64,000 nt of DNA from Escherichia coli (GCF_003018255.1 NZ_CP027440.1); one strand, 5' to 3'; positions 1,026 through 39,311 are shown, counted from the stretch's first letter. Translations and numbers: made by a program. Notes: generated by a model not told the origin, from the letters alone.

Positions 1026-1179
1026 GACAGGATTTCCTTGTGTATGTGGGGTGCTCTGTGGCGCTCGGAGATGTGATTTGATTGAGGGTTTTACAGCGCG
1101 GACATTTTACTTCCAGATAACTGAAACTGGCCCGTGCCAGTAGCTTATTGCAGTGTCGGCACCGTATGTTTCGATACAT
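979..1179 (-). CDS. com: Com zinc-finger translational activator of mom
   Basis: [14 protein letters not shown]...CPRCK matches Mu Com C4 zinc finger; ATG at 1179 preceded by AGGAGG; track start at 1224 is a TTG extension. Confidence 0.8.
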
Positions 1180-5021: not shown

Positions 5022-5075
5022 GTATTTACCTTCCTTAAAAAGAGGTGAAAATGCCTTTTAAAACAGATATACGGT

Positions 5076-5101
5076 ATCCCTGAAAACCTCGGTTTACGGG
5101 A
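5076..5101. other. gix-like recombination site (gin-proximal)
   Basis: tccctgaaaacc-tc-ggtttacgggaa resembles Mu gix (TTATCCAAAACCTCGGTTTACAGGAA); 28-bp perfect inverted match with 6437-6464. Confidence 0.7.
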
Positions 5102-5471
5102 AACGGTAAATAAGGCTGCTGATGCCCTGCCATCGGGTGGAACCGCCGTGGCAGCAAACAGACTCGCCACCCCAAGAAATATTAATGGCGTTCCTTTTGA
5201 CGGAACGCAGGATATCAACATCACGTCAGGAATGACGCAGTCAACCGCAGATGGCCGGTATGTACAGAATGTTCAGCTTGGAGCACAGAGCTATCATTCA
5301 CCCGGAGGCAATGAAATATCATGGAATTACAGCGCACCTTCCGGTTGTATGCTTTCCGGTATTAACGTGCAGGAAACCGGCTCCCGGTCTGCGGACAATA
5401 TCGGTGGGGTCTATTATCGCCCGGTTCAGATTTATATTAATAATGCCTGGAGAACGGTAAGTTCAGTGTAA
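5091..5471 (+). CDS. Alternative tail-fibre C-terminal segment (Sv'), promoterless, expressed only after inversion
   Basis: Plus-strand frame GLRETVNKAADALPSGGTAVAANRLATPRNINGVPFDGTQDINITSGMTQS... parallels the C-terminus of the tail fibre on the minus strand. Confidence 0.65.
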   Translation, partial: GLRETVNKAADALPSGGTAVAANRLATPRNINGVPFDGTQDINITSGMTQSTADGRYVQNVQLGAQSYHSPGGNEISWNYSAPSGCMLSGINVQETGSRSADNIGGVYYRPVQIYINNAWRTVSSV

Positions 5472-5505
5472 ACCACAGAAAAGGGTGCTGAATGCACCCT
5501 CTGAA

Positions 5506-6138
5506 TTATTCCGGTTTTTCCGGCCAGGGAATCGCCTGGTAATGCCCCTCACTGGCAATATCATTAAAGTGCATTTCTTTAAGCTGTCGGATATACGCCA
5601 TCCAGCGCGTCAGCTGTAATTTATTTTCATCGCTAATCATGTCCAGTTTTAATTCTGTTTTCCAGTCATCCACGGTTTCGTTGGCTTCCTGGAGCAGCGA
5701 TGAGCGACGCTTTTCAGCAACCGTCTTCCAGTTTACCGGCACCTTTGATATCAGGCCATCAGAAAACTGCCAGTTACCGTCAATATTCACACCTTCCGGC
5801 AGTTCGTCCACTTCAACAACAGTAAAACCTGCCGGATATAAAGCAGAGACATCTTCAGCAACAGAGCAGATAATACCCGTTACAGGCGAAATACAGAGTT
5901 TGTATTTCTTTGTGAAAAGCGGGATAGATTCATAAAAATCCCTTCCGTCCTCACTCTGGAAATACTGAACATCCTCACCATAGGGTTTGTGTTCCGGGTA
6001 ATATCGTTTTACGTTAATAAGCTCCATTATTTCACCTTGTTTTTGTTGAAAAGACAAAATCATCATATATTTATTCAGATAATCTGTTTTTTGAACTACT
6101 GCACTTTTATGCGCTGGAAGCTGTTTTCCACGAACCAT
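5506..6138 (-). CDS. Tail fibre assembly chaperone (U/Tfa-like)
   Basis: 210-aa ORF immediately downstream of the tail-fibre variable part, inside the invertible segment. Confidence 0.7.
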   Translation of the reverse strand: MVRGKQLPAHKSAVVQKTDYLNKYMMILSFQQKQGEIMELINVKRYYPEHKPYGEDVQYFQSEDGRDFYESIPLFTKKYKLCISPVTGIICSVAEDVSALYPAGFTVVEVDELPEGVNIDGNWQFSDGLISKVPVNWKTVAEKRRSSLLQEANETVDDWKTELKLDMISDENKLQLTRWMAYIRQLKEMHFNDIASEGHYQAIPWPEKPE

Positions 6139-6994
6139 CTATCAGAAACTGAACAGGTCGATAATATGCGGTTACCGTTGCATTACCATCACCAGCGACA
6201 TCAAGCCCTGTAAGTACGCATCCGTCAGGAACTTCAAAAATATTATATTGCATTCCAATCGTTGACCTTGAACCTCTTCGAATGCTTTGAACATAACGTG
6301 AGTCAGCCACAGACTGCGTCATCCCCGATGTAATATTTATATCCTGCGTTCCGTCAAATGGGACACCATTAATATTTCTTGGAGTGGCGAGTTTATTCGC
6401 TGCAACAGCCGTTCCGTTCGATGGCAGGGCATTCGCCGCCTTATTTACCGTTTCCCGTAAACCGACGTTATCGATAAAAGCGCCTTTATCCGGAATGTCT
6501 GCGCCGTTCTGCTCCCTGCGCAGGTAACGGTTATCACCTTCGCTTTTGCTGTAAACATCCAGATTATTACGGGCGGTTCCCGCATTCTCCAGGTCGGCAA
6601 GGTTCTGATCCTTCGCCAGAGCATTAACGTCACCGGGACCAAGACTGTTTTTTGTGGCAAGCGCCCCAAGACCAAGATAACCACGGGCAAGACGCTGGGC
6701 TTCCGCACCGGCATCAGCAATTTCTTTCAGGTTGTTTTTCCGGGAAAAGGCATTCGCAGCGATAATGGCTTTAATGGACAGCGTAAGCTGGTTTAACTGC
6801 GCCTTATCCGGCTGAATACTGGCTTCAGCCAGAATATTCAGCAGTTCGGCCTGGAGAATATTCAGCCAGTCCTGACCAATCCAGCTGATACCTTTTTGTC
6901 CGTCACCTTCGGTAAACCAGGTGGTGGTATTACTCTGCGCCGGTGCCAGCGCAGGCATATTCGCCACGCCGGAATTATTATCAACATGAAACAT
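6107..6994 (-). CDS. Tail fibre protein S (constant N-terminal part plus invertible C-terminal part)
   Basis: 295 aa; C-terminal ~115 aa lie within the invertible segment; crossover falls at IDNVGLRETVNK. Confidence 0.75.
   Translation of the reverse strand: MFHVDNNSGVANMPALAPAQSNTTTWFTEGDGQKGISWIGQDWLNILQAELLNILAEASIQPDKAQLNQLTLSIKAIIAANAFSRKNNLKEIADAGAEAQRLARGYLGLGALATKNSLGPGDVNALAKDQNLADLENAGTARNNLDVYSKSEGDNRYLRREQNGADIPDKGAFIDNVGLRETVNKAANALPSNGTAVAANKLATPRNINGVPFDGTQDINITSGMTQSVADSRYVQSIRRGSRSTIGMQYNIFEVPDGCVLTGLDVAGDGNATVTAYYRPVQFLIDGSWKTASSA
6451..6475. other. gix-like recombination site (inside tail fibre gene)
   Basis: ttcccgtaaacc-ga-cgttatcgata; inverted partner of 5076-5101. Confidence 0.7.
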
Positions 6995-20358: not shown

Positions 20359-20534
20359 TCCGGCAGCATAGGCCGGGAATTTTCAGGGCGGGTTTTGCGG
20401 GATTTCAGGAAGTGCTTCCAGGGGAAAAATACAAAGGCGCTTCACGCAGATTTTAAAGCCCGTTAAATACAGGTTAGAAAATCACGACACGCGCCTGAAG
20501 GGGGTAAGGTAATGCATTTGCATACCTTAAACAA
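20359..20534 (-). promoter_or_regulatory. Intergenic region upstream of I-like gene, candidate late promoter/terminator
   Basis: 176-bp gap in an otherwise packed operon; near-palindrome aaggtaatgcatttgcataccttaa at ~20497-20526. Confidence 0.3.
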
Positions 20535-21008
20535 TTAAGGCGTTTCTGTGGCCTTTTTAAAGCGTTTTCTGATTTCGTCCATGATCTCCTGCTCTGCCAC
20601 CTGATCAAAGCCCATATACGGACGTGCACCAATGGCCGCCGGTCCCGGCGGCATACCTGGCAGGCCACCCCACTGATGAATGGCCGCATAAGGCTCATTT
20701 GATCCAATCAGCGCCCAGGTGTCGCCATAATCCGTGGTCAGGCGTCGGGCCAGATCGCCGTTCAGCGTCAGGATTTTGCCGGGCATGTATCCCTTACGGG
20801 TACGCCACTTGCGGTAAGGATCTGACCAGTCATGCCAGCGTTCGCCGTCCGGCTCTTTTTCCTGTTCAAACGCCATTTCTGACGATGACAGAAGGCTGGA
20901 CGCCACACTGCGGGCCAGGTCTTTTCCGCCACCCACAAACTGAAGCCGGGCAAAGACCCGCTGGAGACGCGTAACGTCAACAACGACGGCGGCATCAATG
21001 GATGACAT
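20535..21008 (-). CDS. Virion morphogenesis protein (Mu G-like)
   Basis: 157 aa, position. Confidence 0.7.
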   Translation of the reverse strand: MSSIDAAVVVDVTRLQRVFARLQFVGGGKDLARSVASSLLSSSEMAFEQEKEPDGERWHDWSDPYRKWRTRKGYMPGKILTLNGDLARRLTTDYGDTWALIGSNEPYAAIHQWGGLPGMPPGPAAIGARPYMGFDQVAEQEIMDEIRKRFKKATETP

Positions 21009-21129
21009 ATTGCCTCCGTATAAAATATGAATATAAAATAAGCAGGCGGTCAGTGTACGCTTAACTGGTAAAGTCGGTGCCTGCCTCCGGGTGGATCATG
21101 TATGCGGGTTCGACCCCCGCCACTGACCG

Positions 21130-22461
21130 TTAATCAATATCTCCTTCCAGTACCTCAAGCATTCCGCCCCGGATATCCGATTTCAGCTTATCCATATTGA
21201 TAACCCGGTAAGCATTAACAATCACATCCAGTTTATCCGGCTGACGCTTCAGGCTGTACGGTGCATTAACGGCAATCTGCACACTGCCATCCTGATTTTC
21301 CACGATATACATCAGATTGTTGTGCCGTTTGTCCCACAGTACCGCTTTTGGCCTTGCCAGCATTGCCGGTAAGCGCCCGAAATCCTCCGGTGTCAGGGCG
21401 ATACCGTCATTCTGATGTTTCATGCTGTCCGCATGGAGCACATTTTTACCGCTCATCGCCAGCAGGCGGGCCGGTGGCGTTCCCGTCCGGCTTTCCACCG
21501 CCTGCGCAATGCTTTCGGTCATAAAGCCCAGCGTGCGGATATCGTTACCGCCTCGCCGGGTTTTCATGATGTTTTTTGCCCAGATGCGGAACGCCAGCTG
21601 CCGCTCCGGGCTGTTGTTCATCTCCTGAACCACCATTTCCCGTAACGCCGGGCTTTTCACCTCGATCAACTTGCGGAGCAGCGCCTGGTCTGTGCCGAAC
21701 GCCGCCGAACCGGGGTTATATGACCAGCCCACATCCGGTGTCATGGTTCTGGTGCCATCTGAATATGTGGTCACCGGCATTTCTCTGACTTCTCCGGTCT
21801 GCTTATCCACGCCAGCCTCAACATTGCGGGTGGAAAGATGATCCTGACCGGATGAAACGGATAACCCCATTGCATCCAGACGGGTCTGAGACAATGGCCG
21901 GACACGGCAGCGGCAGTTCCAGCCATTGGGTGGGTAGTGTGTATTCCAGAACGGATCGTCATAGCGGAATACCAGACCGTTAAGGGCGGAATGCGCCGGG
22001 CGGGTGCGGCTGTCCATCACCGCCACATACTGCCAGAACGGATGCGTGTCCGTGTTGTTCATCATCTGCGTGTAACGCCCGGCATTGTAAGCCACGCGGG
22101 TGTTCACGTTGTAAATCAGCGCCAGACGGCGGGGACAGCCCAGCTGCACTTCTTCTGCGTTACCGGCGCTGTCCACCACAATCTGCTTTCCCCACCATCC
22201 CAGCTTTTGCAGGCGGGGGGTCAGTGTGCGGATAAATGCTTTCTGTGAAATCCCCTCATCAATGGCCCGTTGCACTTCCGCCTGTAGTGTGGTCAGTACG
22301 TCCAGGCGTGCCACTTTTGCCGCCGTGAACGAACGGGCATGAACATCCGCGTCTGTTTCGAACCAGTTCCAGCTGATATGCGCCCCTTTGGCGCGGAAGT
22401 ATGCCACCGCCTCTTTTGAGGGAAGCGTGGCGGCATAACCTAAATCAATCCCCTGTGCCAT
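21130..22461 (-). CDS. Minor head protein (Mu F-like)
   Basis: 443 aa downstream of portal. Confidence 0.8.
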   Translation of the reverse strand: MAQGIDLGYAATLPSKEAVAYFRAKGAHISWNWFETDADVHARSFTAAKVARLDVLTTLQAEVQRAIDEGISQKAFIRTLTPRLQKLGWWGKQIVVDSAGNAEEVQLGCPRRLALIYNVNTRVAYNAGRYTQMMNNTDTHPFWQYVAVMDSRTRPAHSALNGLVFRYDDPFWNTHYPPNGWNCRCRVRPLSQTRLDAMGLSVSSGQDHLSTRNVEAGVDKQTGEVREMPVTTYSDGTRTMTPDVGWSYNPGSAAFGTDQALLRKLIEVKSPALREMVVQEMNNSPERQLAFRIWAKNIMKTRRGGNDIRTLGFMTESIAQAVESRTGTPPARLLAMSGKNVLHADSMKHQNDGIALTPEDFGRLPAMLARPKAVLWDKRHNNLMYIVENQDGSVQIAVNAPYSLKRQPDKLDVIVNAYRVINMDKLKSDIRGGMLEVLEGDID

Positions 22462-27819: not shown

Positions 27820-28261
27820 GGCCGGGGAGTTTCACCCCCTTTGAATAAATCCAGCGGATATACTGCTTACAGGACGCGGGCATCTGCCCGGCATTGATCA
27901 GGCGCAGAAGCGTGGAGTTGCGAAAGTTCGTTTCACCGGCCCAGAAGATCCACGAAGCCAGCGCCACCGTCTGACCACGGGTAAGCGGCACCTGAACACG
28001 CCGATCAATGGCCGCAAAGGCCCATTTCATGTCCTTTTCCAGTAGTTCCAGGCATTCTTCATCTGTCAGGGTCATACCCGGTTTCACATCCGGGCCGGTA
28101 TGGCCGTAACAGATGGTGGGTGTACCGGAGGGATCGATATACGTGGAGTTTTCTTTCCCTTCCCAGTAACCGGTGTAATGCGTGGCAATCGTGAACGTCC
28201 CGGCACCGGCCAGAACAAGGGCAATCAGCTTTTTACGCAGTGGTGCGGGGAGTTTTGGCAT
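27761..28261 (-). CDS. lys: Endolysin (lysozyme) with SAR-type N-terminal signal anchor
   Basis: 166 aa with N-terminal LIALVLAGAGTFTIA hydrophobic segment as in Mu SAR endolysin. Confidence 0.85.
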   Translation of the reverse strand: MPKLPAPLRKKLIALVLAGAGTFTIATHYTGYWEGKENSTYIDPSGTPTICYGHTGPDVKPGMTLTDEECLELLEKDMKWAFAAIDRRVQVPLTRGQTVALASWIFWAGETNFRNSTLLRLINAGQMPASCKQYIRWIYSKGVKLPGLEARRSADEWLCRYDLPKV

Positions 28262-28262
28262 T

Positions 28263-28300
28263 GTTACGCTGTCTCATGATGTTCTCTGAGTCAGCGTAAC
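28263..28300 (-). promoter_or_regulatory. Inverted repeat between mor/C-like gene and lys (candidate late promoter activator site or terminator)
   Basis: gttacgctg (28263-28271) ... cagcgtaac (28292-28300), 9-bp arms. Confidence 0.3.
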
Positions 28301-28332
28301 GGTGAAGGAGAGGCGGCAGGCTTTGCGGAATA

Positions 28333-28758
28333 TCAGAAAAGTGGCGGTTGCGTTCTTGCCAGATGCAGACGGCGCTGTTCGCGTATGACGGTATAAATCT
28401 GGGTTTCTGACATCCGGTAATGGCGGCGAAGGGATTCAATTTTCTCGCCCCGGTCCCAGCGCGAAAATATCTCATTGTTTCGCAGCTCGGCAAAGAGAGA
28501 TTCCCCGACCGGCAGGTAATAACCCCGTCCGCCCATATAGGCTGCCTGAGCCGCAGCCACCTTGCGTGCCAGTTTACCGGCCAGTACCGGCTCAATCCCC
28601 TGACGCTGAAGTTCTGCGCCGGTGACTTCAACCAGTTCTGACAGGGTCCGCGGCCAGTTCTTTTTGAGAACATCATCAGGGATGTCATCAAGGCGGTCGA
28701 TAAGGGCGTGCAGTTGCTCACTGTCACCACCAAACATGCTCATCTGAGTTTCTGCCAT
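28333..28758 (-). CDS. Mor/C-family transcriptional activator
   Basis: 141 aa with C-terminal HTH; resembles Mu Mor. Confidence 0.8.
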   Translation of the reverse strand: MAETQMSMFGGDSEQLHALIDRLDDIPDDVLKKNWPRTLSELVEVTGAELQRQGIEPVLAGKLARKVAAAQAAYMGGRGYYLPVGESLFAELRNNEIFSRWDRGEKIESLRRHYRMSETQIYTVIREQRRLHLARTQPPLF

Positions 28759-28827
28759 ATCAGCCTCCGGTTCTCGCGTTCCCGGTAAGTTTAAAATAAA
28801 AATCCCGCGTTGTGGCGGGATTTGGAG

Positions 28828-29337
28828 TTAACGGGGAAGTGATTTTTCATACTGCCTGCAAACGGCGTCATACCCCATCAGCGTGCGTTCGGGCATTCCC
28901 ATCGCGGCCAGCATTTTGCGGCGGTGCCATCGCTTGAGACGCTCCAGCACATCTGAGGCCAGGGCGGGGTGTTGCTCCAGCCACTGCCAGTTTGCCACAC
29001 CTTCGCCGCCGTTTTGCGCGGCCGTCTGCGATTTCACCCAGCGGTTAAGGGCGGTTTCCGCACCATCGGTGATAAAGCCCTGCCGGTGCATCACCTTCCA
29101 GATGGCGCGAATTTTGGCGGTCACCGTACCCGGTTTTAAGGCCCGGTTAACCGGGTTCTGACGCACTTTAAAACCGCGTTTTTTGAAAACATCCAGCACG
29201 CGGGATAACTCATCCGGTGACATATCCCGGCAGCTGGTTTTGCCGGTGGCTGCCAGCAGCGCGGATGTATAAGTCTCATCATCCAGGGCAAGCTCGCGCT
29301 TTGCCACATGAATGGCGGATATCAGTTTTCCTCTCAT
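28828..29337 (-). CDS. gemA: GemA-like protein (Mu gp16)
   Basis: 169 aa; position immediately upstream of mor-like gene. Confidence 0.7.
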   Translation of the reverse strand: MRGKLISAIHVAKRELALDDETYTSALLAATGKTSCRDMSPDELSRVLDVFKKRGFKVRQNPVNRALKPGTVTAKIRAIWKVMHRQGFITDGAETALNRWVKSQTAAQNGGEGVANWQWLEQHPALASDVLERLKRWHRRKMLAAMGMPERTLMGYDAVCRQYEKSLPR

Positions 29338-29630
29338 ACCGTATTTACCTTTTTACGGACATGGAAAGCCTTTTCTGCCTCATCCCACCGGGCATGGTGT
29401 GTTGGTGGAATAATCATTATGTGCCAGCCATCTCTGGTTGTTATCCGGCAGAAAAATTCACCGCTATATAACACAATGGCCTGCTGAATGAGCGCATCAG
29501 CCGCCCGTTCAACCGGATGTCTTTTATCAAAAAAGCAGATGATTTTTCGACATAACCACCGGGTAATAACAAATGCGCCGAAAAAGGATGTGATATATAA
29601 GCACCAGAACAACAGAGAACTATTGTCCAT
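29334..29630 (-). CDS. Hypothetical early protein with N-terminal TM helix
   Basis: ORF coupled in early operon. Confidence 0.5.
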   Translation of the reverse strand: MDNSSLLFWCLYITSFFGAFVITRWLCRKIICFFDKRHPVERAADALIQQAIVLYSGEFFCRITTRDGWHIMIIPPTHHARWDEAEKAFHVRKKVNTV

Positions 29631-29817
29631 TATCTTTCTCCTTATTCAGTCTTCTGCGACATTCGGCACAGTCATCAGGGCTTTCAAATGTATCCGGCTC
29701 GCGATTATGAGCCAGATATAACCACCGCCTACATATACTGATATTATCGCCAGTTTTAAAAAAATGATGCTTCTTAGCCATCAGAGGGCGCGCCCATCCA
29801 GCGGGTAGACTATTCAT
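29620..29817 (-). CDS. Hypothetical small early protein (Cys-containing)
   Basis: 65-aa ORF coupled in early operon. Confidence 0.45.
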   Translation of the reverse strand: MNSLPAGWARPLMAKKHHFFKTGDNISICRRWLYLAHNREPDTFESPDDCAECRRRLNKEKDNGQ

Positions 29818-30184
29818 TTGCTTTATCCTCCATACTGGACAAAATCATCTGTATTAATGTCGGGCGTGGAGATATACGCATTTCATTAAGCGTCTGAAGG
29901 GCAGCAACAGCTGCCTGTTTATCGGTGCCTTTGGCAATTTCCGCAAGAGAATGCACAATCCATAACGGACTTAACGCCACGACTGAATCCAGAATCATGT
30001 CATCCATAATAATTTCTGACACATCCCGCTTATCACATTCCTTATCCATAAAAGAAACGATTTTTTCCACATCTTCCGGTTTCATGCCTCCGGCGATAAG
30101 AAATTTGCGATACTCATAAGACGATCTTAATTCAATACTCATATTCATCTCCTGTAACTCTGACAAGGACGTGATTTTTCTCAT
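29810..30184 (-). CDS. Hypothetical early protein
   Basis: 124-aa ORF. Confidence 0.5.
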   Translation of the reverse strand: MRKITSLSELQEMNMSIELRSSYEYRKFLIAGGMKPEDVEKIVSFMDKECDKRDVSEIIMDDMILDSVVALSPLWIVHSLAEIAKGTDKQAAVAALQTLNEMRISPRPTLIQMILSSMEDKANE

Positions 30185-30366
30185 TTATGTTTTCCAGTAA
30201 TACGGATATATATGTCGATAAGAAGATTCATAATAAACAGGAAGAGCGACATCCTGATAAAGAACCAAATATCTGGCATCATGGACAGGTTTCCTGTAAT
30301 CGCAAATATAACCCCCCCCCCCAACACCGGAACGAAAATTGCGAAAAATACAAGTCTCTTTATCAT
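30181..30366 (-). CDS. Small two-TM membrane protein containing an 11-nt poly-G tract
   Basis: MIKRLVFFAIFVPVLGGGVIFAI...; C11 run on plus strand at 30312-30322. Confidence 0.5.
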   Translation of the reverse strand: MIKRLVFFAIFVPVLGGGVIFAITGNLSMMPDIWFFIRMSLFLFIMNLLIDIYIRITGKHK

Positions 30367-30914
30367 GGCGTTAACTCCCGTAATACAGCGTCCTCGGCAG
30401 TCCGGCGATGGTGATAAATAAAATTCACCGTACTCTCGGATAATTCAAATTTCTCGCCTATTTCCCGGAAGGTAAGACGTCGTGGTGATTCAGCATCCCG
30501 TAATTCACGAATAAGATGAACATCATCGTCAGGTATACGGGTGAAGGGCAGCAATTCTCCGTATTTTTTCATGCTTACGCCAATATATCGCGCCCGATTG
30601 TGGACAGAATCCCGGTCTCGCCCCAGATATTCTCCTATTTGCTTACCGGTCATCGTTCTGGCATTTTTTCGGATAAATTTATCTTCATCATGTTTAAATC
30701 TTGGACGTTTGCATTTGAGCAACTCCGGGTAAGTACCGCGTAATAAAACAATCCGGTTATGTACACCCCAGAAACTTCTTTTTACCCTGACAGCAATATC
30801 CTTAACCGGGGTGGATGGATAAAGCGCAATCAGCAGCGCATCTTCTTCAGGTGTCCACGCACGGACATGAGCAGGTGCCTGACCTTTTCGCCCCATGGGT
30901 TGTAAAATCATCAT
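30363..30914 (-). CDS. Hypothetical early protein with C-terminal HTH-like segment
   Basis: LTFREIGEKFELSESTVNFIYHHRR helix-turn-helix-like. Confidence 0.5.
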   Translation of the reverse strand: MMILQPMGRKGQAPAHVRAWTPEEDALLIALYPSTPVKDIAVRVKRSFWGVHNRIVLLRGTYPELLKCKRPRFKHDEDKFIRKNARTMTGKQIGEYLGRDRDSVHNRARYIGVSMKKYGELLPFTRIPDDDVHLIRELRDAESPRRLTFREIGEKFELSESTVNFIYHHRRTAEDAVLRELTP

Positions 30915-30917
30915 ACA

Positions 30918-31433
30918 TCACCCCCTGACTCGCTTTTCAGCAGCATAAAACTCATCAGACAGAATTTCGGTCATTTTCTGATTTGCGGGTTTTACGCCGC
31001 ACTCAAGGTAAATCACATCGTCAACGCAGAACCACTTCACAGGGCCAAACATGATTGCCGAGAAATCAATACCCAGCCAGAACAACAGTGCATCGGTTCT
31101 GGCATACGTGACGGGCGAATATTCACGCCACAGACTGTTAAGTTCGTCAGAGGCAACGCGCAGGGCTTTGGGAATACGTGATGTGCGCGGTGTGCAGCTC
31201 CAGCCATTCGACGCAGTCGGTTTTCGCCATAAGTCGCGATGAAAAGGATATTTGTCATCCATAAAGCGCAGCCCTTTAAAACAAAAGCCACTGATACCGG
31301 ATACAAATACCGACCGGCACGCAACATTCAGCACGGCCTCAAGGCGTTTTGCCTCATCCTTAACTTTCTGGCAGTCCTGCTGATATTTTTGCCACGCGGC
31401 CAGCGCGGAAGGGTTTGATGTTTTAAAGAACAT
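30918..31433 (-). CDS. Hypothetical early protein
   Basis: 171-aa ORF. Confidence 0.5.
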   Translation of the reverse strand: MFFKTSNPSALAAWQKYQQDCQKVKDEAKRLEAVLNVACRSVFVSGISGFCFKGLRFMDDKYPFHRDLWRKPTASNGWSCTPRTSRIPKALRVASDELNSLWREYSPVTYARTDALLFWLGIDFSAIMFGPVKWFCVDDVIYLECGVKPANQKMTEILSDEFYAAEKRVRG

Positions 31434-31966
31434 TACGCCACCTCCGCAGATATCCCGGCAGGCGCGGCCGTCCGGTCAACAATCAGGTAACGCAGAACGC
31501 GCGAGGTGATATTCCAGCCGCTTAAACCGCAGATAATGACACCCAGGCGTATGTCGATATACGCCATCACAAACTGGGGCACGCCTTCTTTCATGGCCTG
31601 CTCATCAACTTCAGCCACCACATAAACGGTTTCACAGGTCAGAACGCCCTGAGCAAATTCCCACGCCATTGACGGAATATCATGCCCCTCAATCCACGGC
31701 AGGGATTTTCTGAAGCTGCACCACTGAACATCATCAGCCGCACCTTCCTGGCTGCATTTGCGACGAACCGGCTGCACCGGGCGGGGACGCGGAATATCAT
31801 AAAAACCGTTACATTCCGTCAGCACCCCGGCATCGACCGCATCACGCAGAAAATAAACCATCGAGGATGGCGGCATATTCATTTTTTCAGCCAGAATGCC
31901 GCAGGTCAGACGCCCGTAAATACTCAGCCAGTTTTTAACCCCTTCAAGCACTTTTGCATCAATCAT
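31433..31966 (-). CDS. Hypothetical early protein (possible N-terminal winged-helix)
   Basis: 177-aa ORF. Confidence 0.5.
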   Translation of the reverse strand: MIDAKVLEGVKNWLSIYGRLTCGILAEKMNMPPSSMVYFLRDAVDAGVLTECNGFYDIPRPRPVQPVRRKCSQEGAADDVQWCSFRKSLPWIEGHDIPSMAWEFAQGVLTCETVYVVAEVDEQAMKEGVPQFVMAYIDIRLGVIICGLSGWNITSRVLRYLIVDRTAAPAGISAEVA

Positions 31967-31969
31967 GAA

Positions 31970-32512
31970 TTATTCCTCCGTCAGCGCCACATATTCAGAA
32001 TGTTTAATCTCCTGGCATTCTTCAGGAATACCCCCTTTTATTTCCCTGCCATAAGCGCCTACTTTAAACACCACGCACAGGGCATCACGGGAGAGCGACG
32101 GGGTCCACCAGGAGTCCATGTTAAACATGGAGGGGATTCTCATTACCCCCAGCTTTTCACAGAGCCAGACAAGGAAATCAGGACGCTTTCTTAACTCGCG
32201 TTCAGCGGCTTCAATCATTGCGGCAATCGCCGGTCCTTCAGGGCATGACTCATCAGGTCTGGCAATAAAGCACGGTCCGTCCCCGATAAAAGCCACATCA
32301 TCGCGCTTACGCCAGCCCGCAGGCAGAGCACCAGAAAAATAAAACTCACTGATTACGTCCATGGCAAACGGCTTTAAGCGCAATCCGGCAGCGCCTGTAT
32401 TTTTCAGTAATGCCCGAAGAATACTGTTGCGTAGCGGTAAAACAGTCTGTTGATATTTGGTGAAATATTTATTTGTCTGCACACGGTCTAATTTGAAATA
32501 AAAATATGCCAT
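31970..32512 (-). CDS. Hypothetical early protein
   Basis: 180-aa ORF. Confidence 0.5.
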   Translation of the reverse strand: MAYFYFKLDRVQTNKYFTKYQQTVLPLRNSILRALLKNTGAAGLRLKPFAMDVISEFYFSGALPAGWRKRDDVAFIGDGPCFIARPDESCPEGPAIAAMIEAAERELRKRPDFLVWLCEKLGVMRIPSMFNMDSWWTPSLSRDALCVVFKVGAYGREIKGGIPEECQEIKHSEYVALTEE

Positions 32513-32609
32513 ATATCCTGTTCCTTATTTTCAGTTTACAGGCGCAGGCAGTCCCCTGACGCGAGCGCCATACTTAAAACGATGTGATATTTAAAGATTT
32601 AATGCGGTG

Positions 32610-33140
32610 TTATTTATTCAGTCCGGCGTCCTGTTCAAAAGGCTCGACATAAAAACTTTCAGCGCCTTTATTCACCTTAATACCGGCAATGCCTTTCACT
32701 GCATCCGGCTCCGCCAGGACCGCTTCCTTGTTCACTTCCTCTTTCGTGCGGATGAATCGCTCAAGCCCCATACGGCGCAGCATTTCAATCACACCTTCCA
32801 CATCACGGCTGACGCTGCATGATGGATTTCCCAGCCGCCATGATACTGTTCCGGTGGTCAGATTGGCTGTTTTGGTTTTGCCGCCGTTCGTCAGCTCATC
32901 GCGGTTGGTTTTGCACCAGTCCTGAATCCCCTTAAAAAGCACTTTGATTTCTTTTTTAAGGTTTTCAATCTGCGGCGTATAACGGGCGGTGATTTCTGCC
33001 ACTTCATCATTCATCGCCGTTTCCAGCCGCAGCGCCTCTCGCTGAATATCGCCCAGGGTACGGATATCGCGGCTGACTTCTTCGCGGGTCTGCGGTGCAG
33101 CCTCGGCTGCGGCCTTTAATTTTGTAACACGTTTAGCCAT
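32610..33140 (-). CDS. gam: Gam host-nuclease inhibitor (DNA-end binding)
   Basis: 176 aa, MAKRVTKLKAAAEAAPQTREEVSRDIRTLGDIQRE... matches Mu Gam. Confidence 0.85.
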   Translation of the reverse strand: MAKRVTKLKAAAEAAPQTREEVSRDIRTLGDIQREALRLETAMNDEVAEITARYTPQIENLKKEIKVLFKGIQDWCKTNRDELTNGGKTKTANLTTGTVSWRLGNPSCSVSRDVEGVIEMLRRMGLERFIRTKEEVNKEAVLAEPDAVKGIAGIKVNKGAESFYVEPFEQDAGLNK

Positions 33141-33151
33141 TTTGTTTTTCC

Positions 33152-33445
33152 TTATTGCAGTGTGCCTGATGCTTTATGCACGCGGTGGCGTTTAATGATG
33201 GCATCCGCCCCAAAAGCCTGTACAGATGCCTGAAATTCCGCTGAGAGAAACTGAATAATTTCAGGACTGTGATACTGGAGAATACTTGCATAAACGTCAC
33301 AGAGTGACGTCGGCCTGTTATTCGTATCACGTTCTGTTTTTACATCCACACCAATCTTTTCATGCACTTCAACACAGTCATTGCCTGCCGGTTTTTCGTC
33401 ATGCGAAACATGCTTAAATTCAAAAATAACGCGTACTTTGCTCAT
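33152..33445 (-). CDS. Small hypothetical protein, paralogue A (start MSKVRVIFEFK)
   Basis: N-terminus nearly identical to adjacent gene. Confidence 0.5.
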   Translation of the reverse strand: MSKVRVIFEFKHVSHDEKPAGNDCVEVHEKIGVDVKTERDTNNRPTSLCDVYASILQYHSPEIIQFLSAEFQASVQAFGADAIIKRHRVHKASGTLQ

Positions 33446-33449
33446 GGAA

Positions 33450-33722
33450 TTACCCCTGCTGATTAAATTCATTACCTTTAATAACCCCGGAACGCATGCT
33501 CATATCTTTCATGAGCGCACTGGCTTTCATTGCCACAAGTTCAGCAAAGTCTCTGCTTTCCGCGAGCATAACCACCCCAAAAATCATGGCGGGTCCATCA
33601 CCTTTCTGCTTTATCCCGGTTGAACGTATGTCCAGACTTACCCCCATGCGCACTGTTCCATCAGCGTTTTTATGGATAACGTGCTCCTTGTATTCGAAAA
33701 TAATGCGTACGACTTTACTCAT
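33450..33722 (-). CDS. Small hypothetical protein, paralogue B (start MSKVVRIIFEYK)
   Basis: Tandem diverged duplicate of 33152-33445. Confidence 0.5.
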   Translation of the reverse strand: MSKVVRIIFEYKEHVIHKNADGTVRMGVSLDIRSTGIKQKGDGPAMIFGVVMLAESRDFAELVAMKASALMKDMSMRSGVIKGNEFNQQG

Positions 33723-34000
33723 CCTCTGGTCCTCGTTCTGTTTGGATAACTGACCCGGCGTCTGACCTCACGGCAGAACCGAATCATGGCATTAAAGGCT
33801 TCTTCCTCCGTCACCGCTTCCGGTATCCCCGGAACCAGTAACTGCTCCTGTTCATCACGTCCATGACGCGCCATAACCTCAATCACATGCCGTACCGTGG
33901 CAGGCTTTCCGGCAACTATCGGCAATGCACCTTCCGGCAGGACGTAACCAAACTCAATAAGACCACTCGACCACGCCCATGCAATGAGATTTTTTTTCAC
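33719..34000 (-). CDS. Hypothetical early protein
   Basis: 93-aa ORF. Confidence 0.45.
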   Translation of the reverse strand: MKKNLIAWAWSSGLIEFGYVLPEGALPIVAGKPATVRHVIEVMARHGRDEQEQLLVPGIPEAVTEEEAFNAMIRFCREVRRRVSYPNRTRTRG

Positions 34001-34001
34001 C

Positions 34002-34268
34002 TCACACCTCCCAGTAAACCGTGCAGCCGCTGATGCGGGTGGCCTTCACACGGCGGCGCAGGCCGTTGGTCTGTATGGTGATTTCAATTTCACCGGTTCC
34101 CTGCACGTTGCCTACCGGCGGCGTGGTTTTCAGTGCAAAACGTTGCGGATAGCGCTTACTGCGTTCCAGTACCGCACCGGCAAGTTCGGTCAGACGGCGC
34201 GCGCTGTTCAGGGAGTCGAATAAATTCATTTTGTTACCGCAGGATTGCATATTCATATAACACCTCAT
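34002..34268 (-). CDS. Hypothetical early protein
   Basis: 88-aa ORF. Confidence 0.4.
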   Translation of the reverse strand: MRCYMNMQSCGNKMNLFDSLNSARRLTELAGAVLERSKRYPQRFALKTTPPVGNVQGTGEIEITIQTNGLRRRVKATRISGCTVYWEV

Positions 34269-34496
34269 TTAGCTGACTTGTTTCGCACCAACAGAACGGC
34301 ATATTCCGCTGTAAACGTCTGTCGCACCTTCGCGATCAAGTCCGGCAGATATCACCATTCGTGTGCGGTCATTAAATTCAAAAAGAAAATCGCCACATTC
34401 TTTATTTTCGGCCAGTGAAATCACCTTCACGTTATCGAAATTAACCAGGTAAAAGCGTCCGTAAATATCAGGAATATTAAATACCGCCATAATCAC
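34269..34496 (-). CDS. Hypothetical early protein at kil position (directly after B)
   Basis: 75-aa ORF; position only. Confidence 0.4.
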   Translation of the reverse strand: MIMAVFNIPDIYGRFYLVNFDNVKVISLAENKECGDFLFEFNDRTRMVISAGLDREGATDVYSGICRSVGAKQVS

Positions 34497-35425
34497 ACCT
34501 GTGAGAGTAATTCAGGGTTGGTATAAACCTCTTTAAAGGCCGCATTAATATGTTTTTCTGTCAGCGCCGCGCCTTCACCGCTGGCGGTGAGCCACGCCTG
34601 GTTAAGCGTATGTGTCAGAACGCGTAACGCTCCCGGCTTTTCAGCGATAGCCTGCATGACGGCCAGCTCGGCCTCACCACTGATCCCCCACGCCCTGGCA
34701 ATGGCCAGCACATCCGCCTTTTTGGCCTTGCGAAGTTGTTTTGTACGGGCAAGACGGCTGAACAGGCGCGATAAATCATCAAAGGCGCGGCGTCCACCTT
34801 TAAACAATCCGCGCGGGTTACCAATAAGCACCATCCCGATCCCCGTGGCGTCCTGAATTGCCCGGAGTTGCTCCAGACCGTCAATACCAAGATGATCCGC
34901 CTCATCCACAATCACCAGTCCACGCGTTCCCATCAGGCGACGGCGGATGGCGCGGGATAATGCCCCTTTGTTCGCGCGGGTGTAATCAATCCCCAGCGCA
35001 TCGGCCAGCTCCAGCAGACACTCCGTGACGCTGGAGTGCGCGGGTGACAGGGTGATCATCCAGGTGTTTGGTTGCTCCTGGCAGTAATTACGGGCAGTGG
35101 CCGTTTTACCCACACCCGGTACGCCCACAATAACGTTAATACAGCCCATCAGACGAACCGCCTGAAACAGTGCGCGCAGCTCCTGGACTGTCTGCGTTTC
35201 CACAAACTGCGGCGGTTCCGGCAGTGCGCTTTGTTTATTCCAGTTCTCATACCAGGAACGCAGGGAAGCAGCCACAGCAGCGTTATCGCCTTTATATTTT
35301 CCCTTACGGAAAGCCGATAATGTGCCGTCGGAAATTCCCGCCTCTCTGGCGATGGCATACTGCGTCAGTACGCCGCCATCAATAAGTTCATCAATGGTCT
35401 TGATTACATCGTTAATATCAGTCAT
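34493..35425 (-). CDS. Transposition ATPase B (MuB-like, AAA+)
   Basis: Walker A GVPGVGKT, N-terminal HTH-like region; directly downstream of transposase. Confidence 0.9.
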   Translation of the reverse strand: MTDINDVIKTIDELIDGGVLTQYAIAREAGISDGTLSAFRKGKYKGDNAAVAASLRSWYENWNKQSALPEPPQFVETQTVQELRALFQAVRLMGCINVIVGVPGVGKTATARNYCQEQPNTWMITLSPAHSSVTECLLELADALGIDYTRANKGALSRAIRRRLMGTRGLVIVDEADHLGIDGLEQLRAIQDATGIGMVLIGNPRGLFKGGRRAFDDLSRLFSRLARTKQLRKAKKADVLAIARAWGISGEAELAVMQAIAEKPGALRVLTHTLNQAWLTASGEGAALTEKHINAAFKEVYTNPELLSQV

Positions 35426-35496
35426 ATTATTAACCTCTCATTTGATACCTTGTTTAATCAAATAACCTGAGTCGCCGCTCGGGTTATTTTTTTATT

Positions 35497-37587
35497 TCAG
35501 GCCAGCGGGTCATTTTCTTTTAATTTCGCTTCCAGCAACTGCAATCCCCGCTGGAAATTACGCTCGTATTCTTCATCAGGTTCATCGTCAGCGACCGGTT
35601 GCTGAACGGTCACCGTATTACCCACAGGGCGGTATATGTTTTCCAGCCAGGGCTCCTGCGGCTTGTGCTCCAGCACGTTGACAACCTCATCCTCGGCATC
35701 ACGGATTTTTTCCTCTGCGCGTTTACGCATGCCTTTAAGGCGTTGCTGCTGTTTGTAGTATTCCGCGCTAACCGGGAAGGCTTCGCGTTTATTACCGTCC
35801 CATACCGCCTCGCAAATCACGCTGCCATCCAGGCGACGTACGGTAATTCGTTCGGCATCATGAATGTCATAGCTGATAAGCACCTTACGACCATGCTCGT
35901 CACGCAGCTCGGGCGCGTAGTAAATATTATTCAGCCAGCGTATTTCACAGCGTCTTACAGGGCGTTCCACCATCGGCCGGAACATATCCCGCAGCTCAAC
36001 ATCGGACAGCCATTCAATTTCCGTGTCCTCTTCCGCCAGGCGTTTTTTTCTGAACTCCGCCGGGCTGTAATGCTTGCCGTTCGGCTTCACCGGTAATTCA
36101 TCGTGCGGCCGGTTGTTGTACCACTCAACACCGTCACGAATGGCATCAATCAGTTCAGACCAGGACGGTAAATCACGCATCGCTGACTGCTGCCGGGCGT
36201 TCAGCCGTTTGCCCTGTTGCAGGGCAGTAAATGCCGAGCGTAAATCGCGGTTGGTTTTGCGTAACGTCTCGCGATCTGCACCTTTCCCGAAATAGGTGCG
36301 GTATTTACGGGCTATGCGCATCGGTAATGTGCGGTTAAGCCGTTCGATAATGCCTCGTCCCTGCGGATTACCGGCAATCCCGGTCGGGTGATTAATCCCC
36401 AGTCGCGGCAGTATCCCCACAACCTCCTTATCCAGGATGTCGGCGGTTTCCCCGGAGCCGTTATCCGAGTAATACAGAAACGGTTTGCCGTGATGGCGAA
36501 TGCCGTGCTGTATGGCACCGGCTACGGCGAAAACATTTTCAGCCAGGTCAAGGCTCCAGCCCACCACAAAGCGCGTGCCACCGTCGATAACAAAGGTCAC
36601 TTCCGGTGCAAATGGCCGACCGTGAACCGGGTGTGCGCATTTCAGCTTCATGCCGTGACCGTCACCAATCCAGACATAATTCACCGGCATTCTGGACCAG
36701 TCGCGGCGCGTGAATCCCTCAAGCTGGCGGTATTCACTGCCGGTCACCCGGCCTTTTTGTTTCACCACTTCCGGCAGTTTCTTCATTGCGCGGCGAATGG
36801 TGTCATAAGACGGCATGATATCGAGCATATAAGGCTCATCAGCGTGCCGGTGCTGCCATTCAGCGACAAAATCCTCGTAAGCCTCGGTCATTGGTCGGCC
36901 GTTTGACTGGCGATACTGCGCCAGAAATTCGGGCAGCCAGTTAATATCTTCAGCTTTTATTTCCTGGCGCTTACCCGGTGCCAGTAAAAGCAGGCGTTCA
37001 GCGGCGTTCTGCGCCTTGTTAAAGGCCGCAATCCAGCGTTTCAGCGTTATTTCACTCAACGCACGGCTGTTTCCCTTTTTGGCGTTCGCCGTCTCAACCA
37101 TTGCCACAATGCGCTCGTCCAGTTGCGAACGTGCCAGGTTGTCAACGATAAACCGGATAGCTTTCGCACAGCTGAAACCGGGTTGTTGCGCGACTTTCAT
37201 CACTTCGCTGACGATCGCAATTCGTGCATCAGCCACCTGGCGCTGGTTTTCAGTCAGGGCATTAAGGCGTTCAACCATCAGTTGTGGTGATCCGCGATAT
37301 GCCTCCACCGCATCAACCACGGCAGGCGAGCGTCTGGCCTTTGTCACCACCGGAGCCGGTGATTCATCAGCTTTTTGCGTCATCAGTTGAAGGGCATAAC
37401 GTTCACGCAATACTTGTTGCGCGCCAGAAGGCAAACAATCGATATTAAATTCGATTGCTTTTGTCCCCTTACGTTTGCGTAACATGGCTGCATTTCCCGC
37501 AGCTGCTTTTGTGAGTCGATGGCGAATGTTATGTTCCATCATTGGTAAATCAGGAAGACCAACACATTCTTTTGCTGTTACCCACAT
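35497..37587 (-). CDS. DDE transposase A (MuA-like)
   Basis: 696 aa, N-terminal MWVTAKECVGLPDLP resembles MuA. Confidence 0.9.
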   Translation of the reverse strand: MWVTAKECVGLPDLPMMEHNIRHRLTKAAAGNAAMLRKRKGTKAIEFNIDCLPSGAQQVLRERYALQLMTQKADESPAPVVTKARRSPAVVDAVEAYRGSPQLMVERLNALTENQRQVADARIAIVSEVMKVAQQPGFSCAKAIRFIVDNLARSQLDERIVAMVETANAKKGNSRALSEITLKRWIAAFNKAQNAAERLLLLAPGKRQEIKAEDINWLPEFLAQYRQSNGRPMTEAYEDFVAEWQHRHADEPYMLDIMPSYDTIRRAMKKLPEVVKQKGRVTGSEYRQLEGFTRRDWSRMPVNYVWIGDGHGMKLKCAHPVHGRPFAPEVTFVIDGGTRFVVGWSLDLAENVFAVAGAIQHGIRHHGKPFLYYSDNGSGETADILDKEVVGILPRLGINHPTGIAGNPQGRGIIERLNRTLPMRIARKYRTYFGKGADRETLRKTNRDLRSAFTALQQGKRLNARQQSAMRDLPSWSELIDAIRDGVEWYNNRPHDELPVKPNGKHYSPAEFRKKRLAEEDTEIEWLSDVELRDMFRPMVERPVRRCEIRWLNNIYYAPELRDEHGRKVLISYDIHDAERITVRRLDGSVICEAVWDGNKREAFPVSAEYYKQQQRLKGMRKRAEEKIRDAEDEVVNVLEHKPQEPWLENIYRPVGNTVTVQQPVADDEPDEEYERNFQRGLQLLEAKLKENDPLA

Positions 37588-37597
37588 ACATCCCCCA

Positions 37598-37864
37598 TCA
37601 AGCCACTTCTCTGGCGTCCACCTGGTATCTGCTGGGCCAGATTACAGCAGGTTCAACCCCTATTTTTTCGGCGATGGCGGCTTCGTATTTACGGCACTGG
37701 CGGTAAAACACATTGCGCATTGATCCGCTTTTTAATCCTAACTCCCTTTCCAGTTCAGGGAGGTCTGTGCCTTTGTTTTCAAGGGCTGCATATACCGCTT
37801 TAGCAGACCAGTCACACCCCTCTCGAACAAACAAATTATTCGATGCTTGTCTGGATACCCTCAT
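37598..37864 (-). CDS. ner: Ner-like DNA-binding regulator
   Basis: C-terminal EPAVIWPSRYQ matches Mu Ner. Confidence 0.8.
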   Translation of the reverse strand: MRVSRQASNNLFVREGCDWSAKAVYAALENKGTDLPELERELGLKSGSMRNVFYRQCRKYEAAIAEKIGVEPAVIWPSRYQVDAREVA

Positions 37865-38020
37865 TGTGTGATCCTCTCATGTTTACCTGAACCGATAATC
37901 AAAACCGGTTATCGATTTAGGTAAATCATAATCGCAAAATAATTCGATATCAACGGTTTTTTGCGAGCATATCGAAATTAAATGCGATGTCGATAATTTC
38001 TTTGTTTTATAGGGGGTTAT
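37865..38020. promoter_or_regulatory. Divergent early/repressor promoter-operator region
   Basis: 156-bp gap between divergent ner and repressor genes with repeated TCGATA/TTATCG motifs. Confidence 0.55.
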
Positions 38021-38632
38021 ATGGATAAGGCAGAAAAAACCGTATCCAGTGCGGAACGGTTTATTGATATGGAAGGAATAAACCGATTTTCAGAACGCTT
38101 AGCTATGGCTATGGGAAACATGACAAACGTCGAACTGGCGACCCTTTGTGGACTATCTGAAGCCACAGTAAGAAATTACAGGAAGGGGAAAAACTTCCCT
38201 CCTTTGGATAAACTGGCCTTAATAGCTAAAGCCTGTAATTGTTCACTCGAATGGTTGGCCACAGGCAAGAACGAAGATGAATGCGGAAAAATCGAAAACA
38301 ATTGCGATTCAGGTTCGGGTATTGATCAGGCGCTTAGCTCTCTAAGCCCCCAAGAGAAGCAATTAATCCTTACATTCATCAGGCGAGAAGGTACTAATAA
38401 CCTTGTCAGGCTGGCAGCAATGAATACATCTACAATCAGCCAGGATGCGGTAGAAAGCATCATTGATGCCTTGCCATTACGTCCCGTACTAAAAAATGCA
38501 ATAAAGATAGGAATGGCGGGAAGTGAAGAAACAGACAAAGAGATTTTGCGCGTTATTGAGAAGTACAACTCGAGCAATAACGCCACCCAGGAATCAGGGG
38601 CAGTGACAGTAAAGAAAAATGTTGTTGGTTAA
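38021..38632 (+). CDS. Prophage repressor (c-like, HTH)
   Basis: 203 aa with HTH (VELATLCGLSEATVRNYRKGK), divergent from ner/A/B. Confidence 0.75.
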   Translation: MDKAEKTVSSAERFIDMEGINRFSERLAMAMGNMTNVELATLCGLSEATVRNYRKGKNFPPLDKLALIAKACNCSLEWLATGKNEDECGKIENNCDSGSGIDQALSSLSPQEKQLILTFIRREGTNNLVRLAAMNTSTISQDAVESIIDALPLRPVLKNAIKIGMAGSEETDKEILRVIEKYNSSNNATQESGAVTVKKNVVG

Positions 38633-38983: not shown

Positions 38984-38999
38984 GATTCACCTGGTTACA

Positions 39000-39311
39000 A
39001 ACGATGGATTGATTGATAACCTGCCACAAGGATGTTGCGTGGAAGTAGCCTGTCTGGTTGATGCTAATGGCATTCAGCCGACCAAAGTCGGTACGTTACC
39101 TTCGCATCTGGCCGCCCTGATGCAAACCAACATCAACGTACAGACGCTGCTGACCGAAGCCATTCTTACGGAAAATCGCGACCGTGTTTACCACGCTGCG
39201 ATGATGGACCCGCATACTGCCGCCGTGCTGGGCATTGATGAAATATATGCTCTTGTTGACGACCTGATTGCCGCCCACGGCGACTGGCTGCCAGGCTGGT
39301 TGCACCGTTAA
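39000..39311 (+). pseudogene. melA: melA alpha-galactosidase, 3' fragment downstream of prophage
   Basis: NDGLIDNLPQGCCVEV...DWLPGWLHR* continues the frame broken at 159. Confidence 0.7.

Follow-up and report, generated by a model that had tools for sequence, protein, structure and literature searches.

Early transcription of bacteriophage Mu initiates at the promoter Pe (PMC2582627). Replication-amplifying functions ('arm') have been documented between the Mu genes B and C, and the growth-stimulating, dispensable character of this part of the genome is documented at the level of the region only (PMC10052514). Although the semi-essential region was recognized by genetics four decades ago, most of its open reading frames (ORFs) still lack a function, and no literature was found that assigns 'arm' to an ORF. 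In Mu (NC_000929), this early region comprises gp9 to gp15 and is located between B and gemA/mor. For the Mu-like phages of Pseudomonas, a backbone with 'regions of genomic plasticity' has been reported, which occupy fixed sites mainly in the left arm and contain small phage-specific ORFs, some of them anti-CRISPRs (PMC4378225). Here, a block of eight ORFs, o1 to o8, is described that lies between gam and gemA at positions 29334-32512 of a 64,000-nucleotide stretch of Escherichia coli DNA (GCF_003018255.1 NZ_CP027440.1; this whole stretch is called the window in the following), within a Mu-like transposable prophage of the Sp18 type. This block is a mosaic of two parts, a conserved left half (o1-o4) and a swappable right half (o5-o8) of low GC (guanine plus cytosine) content. 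With moderate confidence, we read the interval as the accessory ('semi-essential') end of the early operon, the left half of which would aid lytic development, while the right half would hold host-specific accessory functions. In kind, the block is ordinary: it is the semi-essential early region of a known prophage type and a pool of genes without assigned function.

The eight genes run head to tail on the minus strand and are listed here together with their two neighbours (E denotes the E-value).

32610-33140, minus strand: gam, upstream neighbour of the block, encoding a Ku-like DNA-end-binding host-nuclease inhibitor (PHROG_491, E 3.5e-70; 57% identity to Mu Gam)
31970-32512, minus strand: o1, 180 amino acids, divergent DUF5420-related protein (PHROG_2260, E 1e-74)
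31433-31966, minus strand: o2, 177 amino acids, Mu gp11 orthologue with a winged helix-turn-helix at the N-terminus and a Gp11_C domain, joined by a Pro/Arg linker
30918-31433, minus strand: o3, 171 amino acids, Mu gp12 orthologue (PF26885)
30363-30914, minus strand: o4, 183 amino acids, basic (isoelectric point (pI) 9.9), with three Myb/SANT-like helix-turn-helix repeats
30181-30366, minus strand: o5, 61 amino acids, very hydrophobic, with two predicted transmembrane spans; a variable cassette
29810-30142, minus strand: o6, 110 amino acids, acidic (pI 4.8); an alternative start at 30184 gives 124 amino acids
29620-29817, minus strand: o7, 65 amino acids, small and basic (PHROG_2358, E 3e-33)
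29334-29630, minus strand: o8, 98 amino acids, a transmembrane anchor at the N-terminus and behind it a basic soluble domain of about 65 amino acids
28828-29337, minus strand: gemA (gp16 family), downstream neighbour of the block (44% identity to Mu GemA; 'gp16 family protein' in RefSeq)

Compared with Mu, the block has the same operon position, the same strand logic and the same neighbours gam and gemA. Shared with Mu are moreover gp11 (67% identity), gp12 (54%), a gp9-equivalent DNA-binding protein and a hairpin element after gam, and the products of the Mu region are, like the eight of the prophage, without assigned function. Whereas the gam-gemA interval of Mu contains four plus-strand genes (gp11-gp14) and the minus-strand gp15, that of the prophage contains eight genes. 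The variable members in this comparison are o1, o5, o6, o7 and o8, which are missing from Mu, and Mu carries gp13, gp14 and gp15 instead. The gp9-like gene is located before gam in Mu but after gp12 in the prophage, where it has an extra repeat. In the Shigella phage SfMu, the order gam, o1 homologue (SfMu_11), gp11, gp12 is found as in the prophage, and so is an o6 homologue (SfMu_14) before gemA. No homologue of o5, o7 or o8 was found in SfMu, and none of o4 in the examined stretch downstream of SfMu_06. Unlike the prophage, SfMu retains Mu gp13, gp14 and gp15 as well as separate mor and C genes. Homologues of o6 are also carried by the Mu-like vB_YpM phages of Yersinia. The interval from o4 to o8 behaves like a plasticity site of the Pseudomonas Mu-like phages, a likeness in layout; these phages differ in genus and host, and their known anti-CRISPR site belongs to the late region and not to the early operon.

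The mosaic becomes apparent when related prophages are placed side by side. When the window is compared with five further prophage variants of E. coli, gam, o2, o3, o4, o8 and gemA are found in all six and o1 in all but one. What varies is the part between o4 and o8: o5-o6-o7 occur in the window, while elsewhere the cassettes x1-x3 are inserted at the 38-nucleotide gap between o5 and o6 or replace o5-o7. GC contents of 0.38-0.44 for o5-o8 compare with 0.52-0.57 for A, B, gam, gp11 and gemA. Among 31 IMG/VR loci with both gam and gemA, 11 different gene orders were observed, the exact order of the window in six of them. Within these loci, gp11 (o2) is present in 28, gp12 (o3) and o4 in 16 each, o1 in 13, o6 in 12, x2 in 10, o7 and o8 in seven each and o5 in six; Mu gp13 and gp14 can take the same place instead. 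Other Mu-like prophages follow the same logic with different members: one Salmonella prophage displays DUF3164, an o1-like gene, DUF5420, gp11 and a Myb protein, and a Mu-like element on a metagenome contig displays gam, DUF5420, gp11 and a Myb protein.

The cassettes found in the o5/o6 gap of other E. coli prophages encode x1 (75 amino acids, acidic), x2 (103-110 amino acids) and x3 (116-122 amino acids, coiled-coil-like). Moreover, x2 is present in a Salmonella Mu-like prophage (87% identity) and in a Mu-like element on metagenome contig L018 (86%). The x-cassette sites in related prophages, in coordinates of the respective locus, are the following.

L004, 2059-2959: x-cassette site
L005, 2059-2735: x-cassette site
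L003, 6828-7725: x-cassette site

All eight ORFs match a PHROG family (seven at E <= 2e-32 and o5 weakly at E 9e-4), RefSeq annotates the same eight coding sequences, and the ratio of nonsynonymous to synonymous substitution rates (dN/dS) against diverged copies from other E. coli prophages is 0.06-0.33 for each gene, a range as in gam and gemA. Because of these PHROG matches, RefSeq calls and dN/dS values, the ORFs are regarded as real genes. It could nevertheless be argued for o5, o7 and o8 that they are chance ORFs or decaying remnants in a defective prophage, as all three are short, the weak PHROG match is the only one of o5 among PHROGs, NCBIfam, PADLOC, Pfam and PDB sequences, and o8 is restricted to this prophage lineage in the phage collection. 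Their dN/dS values of 0.11-0.19, at dS of up to 2.0, speak against this, and so do a Shine-Dalgarno sequence and a RefSeq call for each of the three, the homologues of o7 in 287 phage records with a conserved H/C/C/C pattern, and the retention of o8 at 51% identity in a diverged prophage. Such an origin of o5, o7 and o8 is hence highly improbable and largely refuted.

Functional assignments were sought in several databases. The NCBIfam search with all eight proteins gave no match, and the Pfam scan gave Gp11_C in o2 as the sole match, using a Pfam version that contains no PF26885 model. PDB sequence searches with o1-o4 and o6-o8 returned nothing meaningful, and PADLOC, the models of which represent defence systems and not anti-defence, gave no significant match (best: o4 against a homing-endonuclease model, E 0.008). 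In the PHROG annotation, seven of the eight families are of unknown function, o4 is assigned to transcription regulation and none to anti-defence. No relevant literature was found on Mu gp11/gp12, DUF5420 or the Pfam/PHROG families. A preliminary description of this DNA, made from the sequence alone, had placed eight ORFs between gam and gemA, which ORF positions, PHROG matches, RefSeq and dN/dS confirm. It had further attributed them to the semi-essential early region of a transposable Mu-type phage, in agreement with the gene order and the gam/gemA flanks, and had counted among them two membrane proteins, now recognized by hydropathy as o5 (two hydrophobic spans) and o8 (one N-terminal span), and a Cys-containing protein of 65 amino acids, which is o7. 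Its statement that none of the ORFs is recognizable applies in so far as none has a characterized function, and the set does not consist of Mu proteins of characterized function. It does not apply to homology, as o2, o3 and o4 are homologues of Mu gp11, gp12 and gp9, and o1 and o6 have homologues in SfMu.

Regarding the arrangement of the genes, the distances at the junctions are +3 nucleotides for o1/o2, -1 for o2/o3, +3 for o3/o4, -4 for o4/o5, +38 for o5/o6 (-4 with the long o6 start), -8 for o6/o7, -11 for o7/o8 and -4 for o8/gemA. The overlapping start and stop codons mentioned in the preliminary description are thus present at four internal junctions, while two others are 3-nucleotide gaps and one is a real gap. 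Shine-Dalgarno-like sequences are found at seven of the eight start codons when o6 is counted by its short start, which has an AGGAG Shine-Dalgarno sequence and is the start used by RefSeq, whereas the long start has none. Translational coupling across the block is plausible from this layout. For transcription, the following features were considered.

38021-38632: divergent repressor gene
37925-37953, minus strand: Pe-like sigma-70 promoter upstream of ner, TTGATA-17-TATGAT, matching the consensus at 10 of 12 positions, from which the early transcript presumably starts
37598-37864, minus strand: ner, early gene downstream of the Pe-like promoter
28800-28823, minus strand: intrinsic-terminator-like hairpin of 9 base pairs followed by UUUUUAUU, directly behind the stop codon of gemA, where the early operon presumably ends

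By analogy, the transcript starting at the Pe-like promoter is presumed to cover the block. The hairpin after gemA folds with -13.5 kcal/mol (z -4.8), and none of 200 shuffled sequences folds as well. Other promoter-like matches on the minus strand of the scanned stretch are a 9/12 site at 37993-37966 and a 9/12 site inside o8, and the only other terminator-type match on that strand is a short hairpin of 6 base pairs inside o2. Neither a convincing promoter nor a convincing terminator was detected inside the block by the consensus scan, and the idea of a promoter within the gam-o1 spacer was dropped, as the scan found none there. Because of the Pe-like promoter before ner, the terminator after gemA and the lack of strong internal signals, the block appears to be the promoter-distal part of an early operon of about 9 kilobases (kb) and not a self-contained operon, so that the operon of eight genes proposed earlier is not upheld. 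Being under a repressed early promoter, the genes could therefore act only during lytic growth.

The strong terminator-like hairpin separates gemA from the only Mor/C-family gene of the prophage (28333-28758, minus strand). The product of this gene resembles Mu C, with 39% identity (E 5e-25), more than Mu Mor, with 26%. Whereas the mor gene of Mu overlaps gemA and has a separate C gene behind it, the terminator of the prophage is followed by a single gene of Mor/C type. With a single C-like activator after a terminator, the regulatory cascade may therefore be shortened or wired differently compared with Mu.

In the conserved left half, o2 and o3 are the members with the closest counterparts in Mu. 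The Gp11_C domain (PF25754) is matched by o2 at E 1.2e-39, and its 67% identity to Mu gp11 extends over 177 amino acids; in a search with the gp11 structure model, the winged helix was the only interpretable part and the C-terminal domain was without match. The 54% identity between o3 and Mu gp12 corresponds to E 4e-67, and PF26885 is carried by all 46 of 46 homologues. For o4, PHROG_323 ('transcriptional regulator, D5-like') is matched at E 6e-59 and the RefSeq names are 'DNA-binding protein' or 'SANT/Myb-like'. Residues 66-168 of o4 are 30% identical to Mu gp9, and repeats 2 and 3 correspond to the entire Mu gp9 (repeat tests z 7.6 and 5.8), repeat 1 being an extra copy. Accordingly named, o4 is a predicted DNA-binding protein, namely Mu gp9 extended by one Myb-like repeat. 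Repeat pairs resembling those of o4 are also present in phage D6 and in phages of Vibrio, Klebsiella and Mycobacterium.

The remaining member of this half, o1, has few close relatives, is 40% identical to SfMu_11 and is absent from Mu and from strain STEC1587. Searched alone against Pfam, it gave no match even at E <= 10, and thus the DUF5420 model is not reached. A profile built from its relatives, however, retrieves 26 representative proteins (E <= 1e-3). When the 26 aligned members of the family were compared with Pfam, DUF5420 (PF17457) was matched by 17 of them at E <= 1e-3, so that the relatedness of o1 to DUF5420 members is confirmed at profile level. A C-terminal motif, EIKxSE[FY][IV]ALTEE, is common to all members of the o1 family, and DUF5420 (PF17457) and Mu-Gp12 (PF26885), both of about 170-200 amino acids, share the C-terminal motif EI..SE[FY].A. 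In an hhalign comparison, the o1 family and the gp12 family are collinear over 159 columns (P 0.005), a score reached by none of 200 column shuffles, and the gp12 model matches a DUF5420 protein in AFDB50 (Foldseek, E 2.6e-3). Because of the collinear family alignment and this model match, o1 and o3 are probable remote paralogues of a gp12/DUF5420 fold, a relationship which is supported only with deeper profiles and neither by simple BLAST (E 0.5) nor by shallow profile comparison. No solved structure was found for the DUF5420/gp12 families and no solved structural relative for the gp12 fold, and none of the AFDB50 structural neighbours has a functional description. DUF5420 relatives also occur in neighbourhoods without Mu-type genes, including a phage early region beside an S24-peptidase (CI-like) repressor; the fold is therefore not tied to transposition.

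The left half is preceded by a conserved element, which is also found elsewhere.

32541-32580, minus strand: conserved element of about 40 nucleotides in the 97-nucleotide gam-o1 spacer; an A/T-rich stretch, then a hairpin GGCGC...GCGCC
L002 (Mu), about 6352-6401: the element in Mu
L011, 6930-6975: the element in a further locus

The hairpin loop is nearly invariant: CGTCAGGGGACUG (CGTCAGGGGAYUG). The element follows gam in Mu, SfMu and another Mu-like prophage and follows DUF3164 in a Salmonella prophage, and its pattern is present in 84 IMG/VR contigs. Among 91 cases, 68 have a gam-like gene upstream; of 88 downstream genes, 47 are of the o1/DUF5420 type, 24 are gp11 and 17 are others. Two pairs of the stem covary: positions 22 and 43 form CG in 12 sequences and UA in 10, without a mismatch, and positions 23 and 42 form GC in seven and AU in six and are unpaired in nine. 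The minimum free energy of the fold is -15.5 kcal/mol in the window, and the z score of the Mu element is -2.2. Rfam covariance models gave no match at E <= 1 in positions 28000-38200. An intrinsic terminator was considered as well and ruled out because the hairpin has no U-run. The element may serve in RNA processing or stability, be bound by a protein, or mark a conserved boundary of recombination; each of these three readings fits.

The predicted DNA-binding proteins and the adjoining element also bear on another explanation, according to which o2 (gp11) and o4 (gp9-like) would be developmental regulators of the phage that control early-to-late timing or the lysis-lysogeny decision, possibly via the element upstream of o1. 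This we consider distinctly unlikely, and equally so the corollary that the remaining genes of the block are accessories of o2 and o4. The winged helix of o2, the three Myb-like repeats of o4, the near-universal presence of gp11 in the interval and the dyad symmetry of the conserved cis element next to the block would all be in line with such a role, and with a single Mor/C-family activator placed after a terminator, additional regulation is conceivable. The DNA binding of o2 and o4 is a prediction, however, and the 17 of 88 elements without o1/DUF5420-type gene or gp11 downstream precede unrelated small genes. The early region of Mu is, furthermore, classed as semi-essential, which counts against this role. 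Finally, the Mu cascade from Pe via Mor to C has been described without gp9 or gp11 (PMC2582627).

In the variable right half, o5 reaches a maximum of 2.63 in a Kyte-Doolittle window of 19 residues, has a GC content of 0.376 and a dN/dS of 0.17, and is missing from several E. coli prophage variants. PHROG_1988 is matched by o6 at E 5e-44, the alignment starting from residue 15 of the long form, and its homologues SfMu_14 and the Yersinia vB_YpM proteins are 34-38% identical. Of the 287 phage records with o7 homologues, 268 are Pseudomonas phages (Pbunavirus members such as PB1); examples are PB1 ORF85 and gp76 of E. coli phage swi2. Residues G7, W8, P11, H18, C29, W32, C50 and C53 are invariant in the alignment of the E. 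coli, Pseudomonas PB1 and phage swi2 homologues, and because H18, C29, C50 and C53 are among them, o7 is probably an H/C/C/C zinc finger. Neither a Pfam nor a PDB match was obtained for o7. In o8, hydropathy reaches 1.82 at residues 4-24 (one span), and PHROG_17269 is matched at E 2e-32. All six E. coli prophage variants compared contain o8 at 51-99% identity, always directly before gemA.

These properties might point to an island for counter-defence or superinfection exclusion, formed by the whole block or at least by o5-o8; its small early proteins would inactivate immune systems of the host or shut out competing phages at the envelope, and its cassettes would be exchanged as hosts change. 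The preliminary description had likewise placed host-takeover and anti-defence functions in this kind of region, for which the low GC content of the right half and its swapping among related prophages give circumstantial support. Cassettes turn over between o4 and o8 among near-identical prophages, o5-o8 are of low GC content, the proteins are small and presumably expressed early, and two of them (o5 and o8) are membrane proteins. The occurrence of o7 in unrelated lytic Pseudomonas phages is typical of horizontally traded accessory genes, accessory cassettes of Pseudomonas Mu-like phages include anti-CRISPRs (PMC4378225), and the neighbours gam and gemA interact with a host defence system (Gabija) in Pseudomonas (PMC12407980). 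We still regard such an island as unlikely, if deserving of attention. The PADLOC defence models are without similarity to the proteins of the block, selection is purifying and not diversifying, and o8, present in six of six E. coli variants, is fixed beside gemA. In addition, expression from a repressed Pe would leave the lysogen unprotected unless an internal promoter existed, and none was found in the consensus scan.

Under the accessory reading preferred here, host RNA polymerase would, upon induction or infection, read the whole block from Pe as a single message, and ribosomes would move from one gene to the next along it. The conserved left half, comprising two proteins of DNA-binding type and two of the gp12 fold, would act on DNA or nucleoprotein complexes and thereby boost lytic development, and it is a candidate either for transcriptional takeover or for the genetically defined stimulation of Mu replication of the 'arm' type. 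The exchangeable right half would contribute accessory functions specific to the host, which act at the envelope or counter host interference. The hairpin upstream of o1 would mark the start of the block and probably adjust how strongly it is expressed compared with the essential genes upstream, either through RNA processing or stability or as a protein-binding site.

Several observations weigh against this reading. None of the eight proteins has been given a function by experiment or by homology, and no link was found between arm and gp11, gp12 or gp9. The promoter and terminator scans yield consensus matches, the counts of which are no higher than in shuffled controls. The paralogy of o1 and gp12 combines a weak profile match (HHalign probability 7% at the P value given above) with a single Foldseek match, and the structure model of o2 is of low confidence (predicted local distance difference test (pLDDT) 61.5). 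A role specific to transposition is disfavoured by the DUF5420-type proteins in early regions showing no Mu-type genes. As for the element, its hairpin is not unusually stable in the window (z -0.7), and the covariation of its stem would likewise be compatible with a palindromic site at the DNA level or with a boundary of recombination.

Going further, it may be speculated that the low-GC cassettes (o5-o8 as well as x1-x3 and Mu gp13/gp14 in relatives) include new anti-defence or superinfection-exclusion proteins, o7 for example, or that the hairpin, the near-universal gp11 and the gp12/DUF5420-fold proteins form a regulatory or replication-boosting module of transposable phages that is 'arm'. 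We put this forward as a rather unlikely proposal; if true in its second form, the hairpin/gp11/gp12 module would be the molecular identity of 'arm', unmapped since 1982. The comparison sorts the interval into a small conserved core (gp11, the gp12/DUF5420-fold proteins, the gp9-like Myb protein and the cis element) and exchangeable cassettes, and its outcome is a short ranked list of candidate genes for the replication-boosting, host-takeover and counter-defence functions of transposable phages. What is added to previous knowledge is the link between gp12 and DUF5420, the recognition of o4 as a predicted extended gp9, the map of core versus cassettes and the conserved hairpin element. More than 200 complete genomes of E. 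coli, many from Shiga-toxin-producing strains, contain the variant analysed here.

The assignment of the host element to the Sp18-type prophages is based on the genes surrounding the block, which follow the Mu-type order of repressor, ner, transposase A, B, kil-like and further small early genes, gam, then gemA, a Mor/C-type activator, lysozyme and head and tail genes. The block itself is located downstream of A, B and gam and upstream of gemA and the Mor-type gene, on the same strand. Sp18 is the Mu-like prophage of strain O157 Sakai and has been predicted to be intact (PMC2669165). The DNA of the block is 100% identical to E. coli strain War. Among 5426 complete E. coli genomes, 232 carry the DNA of the block, many being O157:H7 and other Shiga-toxin-producing E. 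coli (STEC) strains, and its sole occurrence in the phage collection is in two Shiga toxin (Stx) phages, annotated as 'region of the inserted Bacteriophage Mu-like phage'.

A phage portal gene is split in the window, with RefSeq fragments at 1-158 and 38991-39218 flanking the Mu-like prophage, and genes of a lambdoid (Qin-like) prophage are found from about 39 kb onwards. Because portal gene fragments are present on both sides, the Mu-like phage has evidently inserted by transposition into a portal gene that belongs to a different prophage. A Mu-like insertion in the portal gene, as in the window, is also found in the Stx phages LC727881 and LC727895.

Five further small early genes between B and gam (33152-34496, minus strand) are variable among related prophages. 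One of them is the Kil-like gene at 34002-34268 (minus strand), with 33% identity to Mu Kil (E 1.6e-4), and the first gene after B (34269-34496, minus strand) has faint similarity to Mor (E 0.002). Between virion and head morphogenesis genes, RefSeq annotates a 'tRNA-OTHER' at 21049-21128 (plus strand), which is unsupported, as ARAGORN detected no tRNA in 20500-21600. At the right end, a Com-family regulator gene adjoins a gene for a hypothetical protein of 245 amino acids (288-1179, minus strand), corresponding to the com/mom position of Mu. A recombinase gene beside tail-fibre and tail-fibre-assembly genes (4461-6027, minus strand) resembles an invertible host-range segment, as reported for Sp18.

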